In this document: piece by piece, positions 1-3,000 of the stretch | Numbering within the stretch: position 1 is the first letter of the stretch | Layout of the letters: each line of letters begins with the position of its first letter | Made by a program: the position numbers | Source of the DNA: a virus | Lineage: Duplodnaviria > Heunggongvirae > Uroviricota > Caudoviricetes | Direction: 5' to 3' (one strand) | DNA length: 23,056 nt | Virus record (IMG/VR): IMGVR_UViG_2695420651_000007

Positions 1-3000
1 GGCAGAAGCAGAAAAAGCTTATTATGCTTCCATCAGAAACGATGATCTGGCAGCCTGAGTTCACAGATAAAACACTCTCCAGGAAAACCGGGGCGGTTCA
101 TATCGATTTCATCATGGTTGCCTGCGCCAGGATTTTCGCCATATCTGACAGCACAGAAGAGGTGAAGGATTTGAAATTGAGTTTGCCGGTAGTGACAAAA
201 GTTGCCAGGCCATTTCCCATGTTGCTGAAGGCTGACGAGAACACCTGTTCTGCTGTTTCTGCCGTATTATCTGCATCCACGGTAAAATCCTGAAATGCAC
301 GCAGGACTCCGTTTTTCCAGTTACCCTGTACAACTTCAAGCTGTTGCCAGTAACGGCGATTCTCATTCAGTTGTCGGTTCAGGCTCTCCGTCAGCGCCTG
401 CTCGGCCTTTCTGTAGTCATCCGTGTTATATGTCCCTTTCTGCTCACTATCCCGCCTCAACTGCTCCAGCTGTTGCTGGTATTTCTGGCGAAGACTCAGT
501 TGTACCTGATATCGCTGTCGCTGCTGATCACCCATACCCACCGTGGCGATATCCAGGTCATGTTGCTGACGCTGAGCGCGCTCTTCTTCAGCCAGTTGAC
601 TGGTCAGCTGAATTGTTTTTTTCTTCAGCTCGTTGAGTGCCGTCTGTTTCTGAAGCTCCTGCTGTTTTACATCCAGCAGCGTCAGTGCCTGAATCAGTTC
701 ATCTTTACGGGCCAGCACACTCTTTTCATCTGCCGTCAGTTTTTTCCCGTCCAGGTCGCTGATGCGCTGCTGCAGAGCCAGAAGCTGTTTATGCGCTTCT
801 GTCATCCTTTCCGTGGCAATGCCTGCTGACTGTCTGGCAGCAGCAATCTGTCCTTCCACCTGTGCCTGTTGCTGACTGTACTGCAGCAATAACCGGGTGG
901 CCTCATCATTACGGGGTTCGCGTGTTTTTTTCTTACCGGATGCCAGGGCTTTCTCGTAACGTTCATTTTCACGTTGTATCGCCGCATCCCTGACAGCCTG
1001 ATCGGCGTACTGCATGGCATTAATACGCGCTATTTCACGCTGATGTCGTGCTGCTTCCGTTTCATTCATCCGGTTCAGTGCAGCATTTTCAGCATTACGG
1101 CGTTTCTGTTGCTCCTGATAATTCCGCTCTGCCTGCTCTTTTGCATCCTGCAAATCCTTCTGGCGTTTTTTCTCCTGAAGATCGTTAAGACGCTGCTGAT
1201 CGTATTCAACCTGAGAAGATGATGCCGTCCAGGGGAGTCTTTTCGCCCGCGACACTTTCTCCTGTAAAGCGGCAATCTGTTCATCCAGCGAGTCTTCACG
1301 ACCAATATTCATGGCCGCATCCCAGAAACGACTCCACAAATCAGACAGATACTTCAGCGTACTGCCAAGCGCATTGAGGTTATTATCAATATCCGCAGTA
1401 CGCCGACCGGTTTCCTCTGCCAGTGCAGACATGGCTATCCGTGCAGCATCACTGGACCGCCCCTGCTCCCCAAGGACGCGTATCTGCTCAAGCTGAGTGG
1501 CAGTAAGAAAATGCAGCTCATTGTCCAGAGCCTTCGCGGCATTTACAGGATCATCCTTCAGCCGCTTAAACTGATTTATGGTATCGCTGACCGACTGGCC
1601 AACCGATCGCTCCATCTGTGCGGCAGCTCTCGCCACCATACCGATATCGTTTCCACGAAATGCACCACTCCCCACCACCTGAGCCAGCGCACCGGCTGCA
1701 GCATGTTGCGTGATACCATTCCCGGAAATAGCACGACTGAGCGTCCACAGCTGCCCGGCAGTGACTCCGGCATAATGCCCCGTCAGCGACAGCTGGCGGT
1801 TAAATTCTTCCCCCTCCTTCTGACCGTCATACCAGGCTTTACCCAGACCATAGACAGCCGCGGCAATACCGCCAATAACCGCTCCTGGCATCATGCCTTT
1901 CGGTGACATCAGTGTGTCTATCCACCCGGCACGGTTAGCCAGCGTTATTCCGGATCCCCTCAGCGCACCTAAATTACCGCGGGCCAGTTCACCTATCAGA
2001 ACGCCTATCTCCTGACGGGCTGCTGCACTTTTCAGACCCAGCGAATGCGTGGCTTTTCCTGCCTGCTCCATTTTGCGGATATACACTTCTGCAGCACTGC
2101 TTACCCCCAGCTGGGCAGCCTTAGCACGAAGCAACTCAGAAGAAGAAAGATTCTGGCGGGTTGCCTGCTCTTTAAGCTGACGGATAAACGCCACTTTCTG
2201 TCGGGTAGCCTCTTCCTCAGCCTGTGTAAGAACACGGGTTTTCGCCGTAACCTCAGAAATCAGCGCCAGATAATCCTGCTGACCAATCCCGCCACTGTTT
2301 CTGGCCTGTCGGATCTGTTGCTGAATACGCTGTAATTCCTGCAGCCCCGCACCGGCCTGTTTCACACTGTCAATCTGACGATAAAACGCAGCAGCCGCTT
2401 TATCCTGAGCCTCCGCCAGAGCCATGGCCTGCGCCTGTTCCTCGCGCATTTTCTGGCTCAGTGCCTCCATACGCTGGCGGGTTTGCTCCACCTCGCGGGC
2501 CATGCGTTCATGAGCCTGTGCGCTCTTCTCCACCGTCTGCGCATGGACGGATGCGGCTGTTGCAGCCGAAGAAGCCGCCTGCATTGTCTGCCGGGCGGCC
2601 TGAGTCTGACGCTCCATAAAACGCTGCATACGGGCAGAAGACCGTTCTGCATCGCTGGCTGCACCATTCAGAAGGTTTTTGATACGGGGAATTTCATTTT
2701 TAAACTCTGCCGCATCAATCCCCAAATCAATGACCAGGTTGGCTATCTGGTCCATAACGCACACCTCCGGAAATACCTTCCCCAAGATGCATCAGTTCTT
2801 CGTCCGTTCGCTCCGGTATCCCGTTCTCTTCCGGTAAAAGGCTGAAATCAGCCACCGCAGCATCACTGCTACCGGACACCATTCTCACGATCAATGCCTT
2901 CAGCGAGGCAAACTGCGCATCCATCCACACATCACTGAAGCTCTGCATCCGGAAATAATCGCCCCACTCACCAAGCTCAGTGGCCGACATTTCCGACAGC

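Follow-up and report, generated by a model that had tools for sequence, protein, structure and literature searches.

Does the tape-measure gene of a lambda-like prophage that ends exactly where an insertion sequence begins owe its end to that element, and, if so, what became of the rest of the gene? The question is raised by a 23,056-nucleotide stretch of tailed-phage DNA (IMG/VR record IMGVR_UViG_2695420651_000007; the whole stretch is hereafter called the window), which opens with 100 bp of an insertion sequence (IS) that directly abut an open reading frame (ORF) resembling the lambda tail length determinant gpH. The original prediction, made from this DNA by itself, was that the IS had inserted inside the gene and had fortuitously supplied its stop codon, leaving a truncated and presumably non-functional protein. 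Here, by comparing the window with intact alleles, complete genomes and draft assemblies, we show that IS629/IS1203, an element common in E. coli, has transposed into codon 885/886 of the tape-measure gene and that the resulting junction recurs in other assemblies. The whole explanation that we put forward, comprising the IS629 insertion, the TGA stop, the loss of the C terminus, a prophage without a tail of its own and a simple insertion, is in our judgement highly probable.

IS629 in the tape-measure gene

The left end of the window is the right end of an IS629/IS1203 element (Table 1). Positions 1–100 are identical at 98 of 100 bases to a 1,310-bp copy in strain ERL03-1416 that is annotated as an ‘IS3-like element IS1203 family transposase’ with a programmed frameshift; IS1203 is regarded as an isoform of IS629. 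Bases 2–58 of the plus strand encode the last 18 codons of the transposase (orfB) and its stop, the translation ending ...AEAEKAYYASIRNDDLAA, and with the transposase in this direction the element and the late operon of the phage converge. The terminal inverted repeat, which ends ...CCGGGGCGGTTCA at base 100, has the imperfect, approximately 25-bp 5′-TG...CA-3′ form of the IS3 family (window 76–100, ending ...GGGGCGGTTCA). Its reverse complement agrees at 22 of the first 25 positions with the left IS end that starts at 22974, the two ends belonging to two different copies. Only 100 bp of the first copy lie inside the window, with the remainder past the contig end; evidently, the window is a whole draft contig bounded by repeats, in this case IS copies. 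Among contigs that encode the truncated product of 885 residues, the longest has 23,056 bp, exactly as many as the window.

Table 1 Features of the window that bear on the insertion
Feature	Position	Strand	Basis or remark
IS629/IS1203 (IS3 family), right end	1..100	+	100% identity to annotated IS3-family transposase copies, 974 records
TGA that ends the truncated tape-measure ORF	98..100	-	Three outermost IS bases
TAT (ATA = Ile885 on the coding strand), probable 3-bp target-site duplication	101..103	.	
Truncated tape-measure (lambda gpH-like) coding sequence, codons 1–885 of 1021	101..2755	-	885/885 identity to WP_000371992.1, Pfam, gpH alignment
Tail assembly chaperone genes G and T	2727..3451	-	Annotation of the identical CB9615/USDA5905 region
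Second IS629 copy, left end (TGAACCGCCCCGGGAATCC...), orfA ATG at 23028	22974..23056	+	Same orientation as the first copy

The tape-measure ORF runs on the minus strand over 98..2785, its translation ending ...AKILAQATMMKSI before the stop, and the start used by annotated homologues, an ATG at 2755, gives a product of 885 residues and 98 kDa. Three Pfam families are matched well above their gathering cut-offs: TMP_2 at residues 228–426 (167.8 bits; cut-off 30.2), TMP_4 at residues 616–693 (61.3 bits; cut-off 27) and Tape_meas_lam_C at residues 811–884 (77.8 bits; cut-off 23), the last of these over profile positions 1–74 of 76. The ORF had been described as stopping six residues past its conserved motif, a detail that we correct, as the Tape_meas_lam_C match reaches the very end of the ORF. 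The gene order is that of a gpH-type gene. Genes G and T lie immediately upstream in the window, which identifies the tape-measure gene as the H equivalent, and the M-L-K-I-J genes lie downstream in intact orthologues and in the far-side contigs described below, with the IS standing directly 3′ of the ORF in place of gpM in the window itself. On contig L002, the Pfam families Phage_TAC_2 and Phage_tail_T were found on the same G/T genes.

Uninterrupted alleles place the break to the base. In the O55:H7 strain CB9615, the gene spans 3,066 bp and encodes 1021 residues (WP_000371992.1), and all 885 residues of the window product are identical to the first 885 of this protein, as they are to that of the O55:H7 strain USDA5905, so that 136 residues are missing. 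From 101 to 22975, the window shows 100.0% identity to the prophage that USDA5905 carries at ybhC, where the tape-measure gene is intact and gpM, L, K, I, J, lom, the tail-fibre genes and the effector genes nleB2, nleC and nleH1-1 come after it. DNA homology to the uninterrupted alleles breaks at exactly 100/101, which is the IS terminus: the intact gene reads ...TCG ATA AAA GGG... and the window ...TCG ATA TGA ACC GCC..., or, in a base-level comparison of the coding strands, ...ATGATGAAATCGATA AAAGGGATTGGC... in CB9615 and ...ATGATGAAATCGATA TGAACCGCCCC... in the window. The alignment with intact orthologues that had been proposed as a check, together with the coincidence of the DNA break with the IS end, bears out the proposed insertion inside the gene.

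The stop codon of the ORF (TGA, 100–98 on the minus strand) is the reverse complement of TCA at 98–100, and these are the outermost three bases of the IS right end (...CCAGGAAAACCGGGGCGGTTCA); the ORF thus ends on the IS terminal TGA, as had been predicted. The further claim, that the IS supplies this stop fortuitously, holds in that IS bases do form the codon, but the event is an unremarkable one. Inspection of both ends of IS629 shows that each reads 5′-TGA inward, so one insertion in every three into a coding frame will stop on the terminal TGA; with either of the two other frames, the present ORF would have extended into the IS right end by 12 or 21 codons.

Recurrence of the junction and the far side of the element

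Megablast searches with window 1–1200 and 1–260 against 5,426 complete E. coli genomes returned thousands of tape-measure matches, all of which, among the matches listed, start at base 101, and no record in this set spans the IS/tape-measure junction. Exact pattern scans of the GTDB species genomes, IMG/VR and the JGI metagenomes found no near-side junction either, an expected outcome given that these collections hold few E. coli strains. In draft assemblies, the same junction, AAATCGATA joined to TGAACCGCCCC (also given as AAATCGATA joined to TGAACCGCCCCGGTTTTCC, the form common to all four contigs shown), is present in four independent contigs, one from an NCBI assembly and three from Logan assemblies of different runs, which stem from different assemblers. 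The exact 885-residue product is encoded on 13–19 contigs, all stopping in the IS, and an 884-residue ‘partial’ product, ending ...AAATCGAT one base before the IS, on 14 further contigs; every contig that bears either form stops at this junction. The 90% protein cluster that includes the 885-residue product consists mostly of 1021-residue members, one listed member being present on about 1,000 contigs, and the full-length members have 1021 residues in all cases listed.

The missing 136 residues have no tblastn match within the window, and, as none of the 5,426 complete genomes carries the junction, closed genomes could not show the far side of the element. The search for the 3′ portion of the gene beyond the IS, a second check proposed with the original prediction, nevertheless yielded strong indirect support: the exact 136-residue remainder, KGIGSV...SGAYR (P0126), has a database entry of its own, under the name ‘phage tail tape measure protein, partial’, and 16 other draft contigs begin with it. 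These far-side contigs start TAAAAGGG, AAAAGGG or AAAGGG, that is, 0–2 nt before codon 886, and run on into gpM-L-K-I-J. For their first ~1,180 nt, most show complete identity to USDA5905; one of them (L023) matches an O157-type allele, which implies either repeated insertion at the site or a separate origin for some of these contig breaks. Of four GenBank accessions listed for P0126, three differ by 341–539 numbers from accessions of the 884-residue N-terminal part (EFB7133783/EFB7134322, EFK6382534/EFK6382941 and EHD7200904/EHD7201245), a closeness suggesting that N-terminal part and remainder belong to the same assemblies.

The near side also carries a probable trace of transposition. The TAT at 101..103 abuts the IS, and far-side contigs of other assemblies start TA followed by AAAGGG, placing two of the three bases on both sides; in USDA5905 terms, locus positions 12001–12002 are present on both sides of the break, which fits a 3-bp TAT duplication. 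A simple insertion allele with this duplication would read ...TCGATA, then IS629, then ATAAAAGGG.... The IS-to-remainder junction was absent from the GTDB species genomes, IMG/VR and the JGI metagenomes in exact pattern scans that allowed a duplication of 0–6 bp, and none of eight guessed chimeric proteins reading out of the IS left end (two IS variants, 8–37 IS codons) occurs in a collection of 15 billion proteins. An 86-residue C-terminal fragment (P0121) was considered as a further far-side candidate and set aside: the contigs on which it was found are long, their copy of the gene is interrupted by frameshifts or, in one case, fused to a terminase gene, and none has the IS junction.

Two further observations concern the assemblies in this region. 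Far-side contigs L019–L028 diverge in gene L after ~1,180 identical nt, and several short ones end there, which points to interference with assembly by paralogous lambdoid tail genes from about nt 1180 of the far-side contigs onwards. Separately, six chimeric proteins (P0004–P0007, P0047 and P0048) and one Logan contig (L014, 5850–5880) have different upstream phage genes fused to the tape-measure C terminus. The partners are gpT, a head decoration/cement protein, lysozyme and terminase, and the joint, immediately before LGFDLSS at residue 892, lies 17 nt downstream of the IS site, with short microhomology in L014 (TACTGGGATTTG). The joint may mark a point at which deletions repeatedly end, or it may have arisen in assembly.

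Three readings compete with a simple insertion. The window is a short-read draft contig with IS fragments at both ends and its junction is in none of the complete genomes, as would be the case if the junction were an artefact, a chimeric contig end arising from repeat collapse while the gene is intact in the genome. The recurrence of an identical junction in four independent assemblies made with different assemblers speaks against this, as do the 14 additional contigs that end one base before it. So, too, does copy number: a 601-bp region across the site is found at one place per record in sampled O157:H7 complete genomes and at a median of one place per genome overall (among 1,861 records with a match, 1,834 extend over 80% or more of it), and because the region is single-copy an intact gene would assemble straight through it. 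We consider an artefact extremely improbable, and for the same reason we rejected a paralogous-prophage fork in the assembly graph as the cause of the contigs that start at codon 886, which does not explain the breaks. Hardly any weight attaches to a natural short tape-measure variant with a legitimate end at ...MMKSI. Tape_meas_lam_C is essentially complete in the 885-residue product, and the end lies roughly at the region in which lambda gpH is processed to gpH* (see below), but what follows the stop is the IS, not gpM, and identity to the 1021-residue alleles is 100% up to the break. A naturally 885-residue tape measure, which would have been a counterexample to the prediction, was looked for and not found, the cluster being dominated by, and its listed full-length members all being, proteins of 1021 residues.

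The third reading, which we regard as unlikely, is an IS-associated rearrangement in which the element marks the endpoint of a deletion or inversion, so that the rest of the gene, together with the tail genes distal to it, is no longer adjacent or is lost. The window ends inside the IS and the far side is outside it, neither protein look-ups nor pattern scans recovered an IS-to-remainder junction, a second direct IS629 copy 22.9 kb away makes recombination between copies possible, and the ybhC prophage of ERL03-1416 lacks a ninB-through-gam block that USDA5905 retains. Yet contigs that start 0–2 nt from the complementary position hold exactly the missing 136 codons followed by gpM-L-K-I-J, and they apparently derive from the same assemblies as the N-terminal part. 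The presence of two bases on both sides, moreover, is predicted by a target-site duplication and not by a deletion endpoint. We infer the topology of a simple insertion, in which the missing 136 codons and gpM-L-K-I-J very probably come directly after the IS.

The lost C terminus and lambda gpH

Assembly of the lambda tail starts from the tip complex, where the C terminus of the tape measure is anchored, as described by Katsura and by Hendrix. The tape-measure ORF of the window is homologous to lambda gpH (pairwise BLASTP E = 2e-50), and the C-terminal 35 residues of the intact protein are strongly conserved between the two. Residue 885 aligns with V701 of the 853-residue gpH, which confirms the statement in the original prediction that lambda H runs well past this point, and the lost part corresponds to lambda 702–853. 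This segment includes the conserved GPAALKAVYD... helix and ...NNDGTNGQIGPAALKAVYD... segment. Lambda gpH 818–842 has been seen by cryo-EM as a trimeric coiled coil in the lumen of the tail tip, on the gpI tripod (PMC10721106). Its counterpart, GPAALKAVYDLGKKAAADFMQQQARDGG at approximately residues 986–1013 of the 1021-residue protein, falls entirely within the missing 136 residues. The 885-residue ORF, which lacks the conserved C-terminal helix of a gpH-type protein, is a truncated member of this family and a pseudogene fragment. Given a tail that assembles from the tip and a product that has lost the tip-docking helix, the truncated protein should fail to nucleate the tail and would probably be unable to start tail assembly at all.

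The position of the break invites comparison with the maturation of gpH, which in lambda is cleaved after assembly, in a glycine-rich region near residues 690–710, to give gpH* of ~78 kDa and gpHC of ~14 kDa (PMC12617516). The IS cut, at the equivalent of V701 in a homologous protein, falls within this cleavage zone, and the piece that it removes has a computed mass of 13.96 kDa, or 14.0 kDa beside the ~14 kDa of gpHC; lambda 1–701 would be 77.0 kDa. We regard this as a coincidence, with no sign of selection. In lambda, the proteolytic cut is made after full-length gpH has been built into the tail, whereas here the C-terminal piece has never been joined. The 885-residue protein does resemble mature gpH* in length, given the cleavage near 690–710 in lambda (PMC12617516), a point against loss of function; and tail parts might come in trans from further lambdoid prophages of such strains, a point against the loss of a tail from the prophage (PMC2669165). 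A ‘pre-cleaved’, gpH*-like protein that is still functional, whether as the trans-envelope channel, with a separately made C-terminal fragment or with the tail proteins of another prophage, is nonetheless very unlikely in our estimation. If such a product did work, the covalent link between gpH* and gpHC would be dispensable, which would bear on why gpH is cleaved. The coincidence in position could serve as a ready-made construct.

The preferred reading, insertional inactivation, is thus as follows. IS629/IS1203 entered a tape-measure gene of 1021 codons at codon 885/886; the gene belongs to a lambda-like prophage at ybhC, the O55:H7-type version of the ybhC-integrated element that carries nleB2, nleC and nleH1-1. 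The tape-measure mRNA would be translated through Ile885 and would stop on the TGA of the IS inverted repeat, giving a product of 885 residues (98 kDa) without the C-terminal 136 residues (14 kDa) and hence, by gpH homology, without the glycine-rich region and the terminal helix. Such a protein would be unable to seed tube polymerization, leaving the prophage without a tail of its own, and the remaining 136 codons and gpM-L-K-I-J would stand just past the IS, after a 3-bp duplication.

Further lesions and decay of the prophage

The second IS629 copy, at the other end of the window, sits after codon 21 of a 71-codon, cro-like helix–turn–helix gene (22974–23056, together with 22821–22973), and none of the 5,426 complete E. 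coli genomes contains its junction with this gene. Two IS629 copies in direct orientation thereby flank the 22.9 kb between the cro-like and tape-measure genes, an arrangement in which recombination between the copies is liable to delete the segment or excise it as a circle. An in-frame TAG lies at 6958–6960 on the minus strand, at codon 334 of a 675-codon gene that encodes a fusion of a ClpP-like prohead protease and the major capsid protein. It is common to USDA5905, in which RefSeq marks the protease/capsid gene as having an internal stop, and to contig L002, and is CAG in the O157 strain ERL03-1416. The TAG either inactivates the gene or merely separates the protease from the capsid protein, for which an ATG two codons downstream opens a 339-residue ORF. 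On the strand opposite to the late genes, a 319-residue ORF (17164–18123, plus strand) corresponds to the gene annotated as an LpxR-family lipid A deacylase in the USDA5905 and ERL03-1416 prophages, and is a cargo (moron) gene between the annotated gene for antitermination protein Q and the nin region.

The closest parallel to the tape-measure insertion is in O157:H7 strains such as ERL03-1416 (NZ_CP032811.1), in which the same IS family has hit the same gene at the same ybhC locus, splitting it into N- and C-terminal pseudogene fragments, with the transposase opposite to the late operon as in the window. In that strain, IS1203 (locus 7228–8522) lies at approximately codon 482 and is accompanied by a 3-bp CAT duplication, compared with codon 885/886 here, and the difference in position makes the two insertions independent; the ERL03-1416 prophage has also lost the ninB-through-gam block, which the window version keeps. 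The same tape-measure gene has been hit by IS629/IS1203 at least twice in the O55/O157 group.

More broadly, the lambdoid prophages of enterohaemorrhagic E. coli O157 Sakai carry effectors and have been inactivated by frameshifts, deletions and IS insertions (PMC2669165), and one of them, Sp3, was scored as non-excisable and non-packaged (Asadulghani et al. 2009, PMC2669165). The prophage described here is likewise effector-bearing and piecemeal in its decay, with an insertion site that is in none of the complete genomes searched. The event is a routine IS629 pseudogenization of a prophage tail gene, and an ordinary instance of prophage decay.

These results have practical consequences, in that the annotation of the publicly deposited 885-residue ‘tape measure protein’ should identify it as what it is, a fragment of a pseudogene. 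Both IS629 sites provide a lineage marker, the tape-measure site being present in at least two dozen draft assemblies (~27 with the 884- or 885-residue product). For the O55:H7/O157:H7 group, the insertion adds one more case of IS629-driven decay among effector-carrying lambdoid prophages, and the loss of the prophage’s own tail would help to fix its nleB2, nleC and nleH1-1 cargo in the chromosome.
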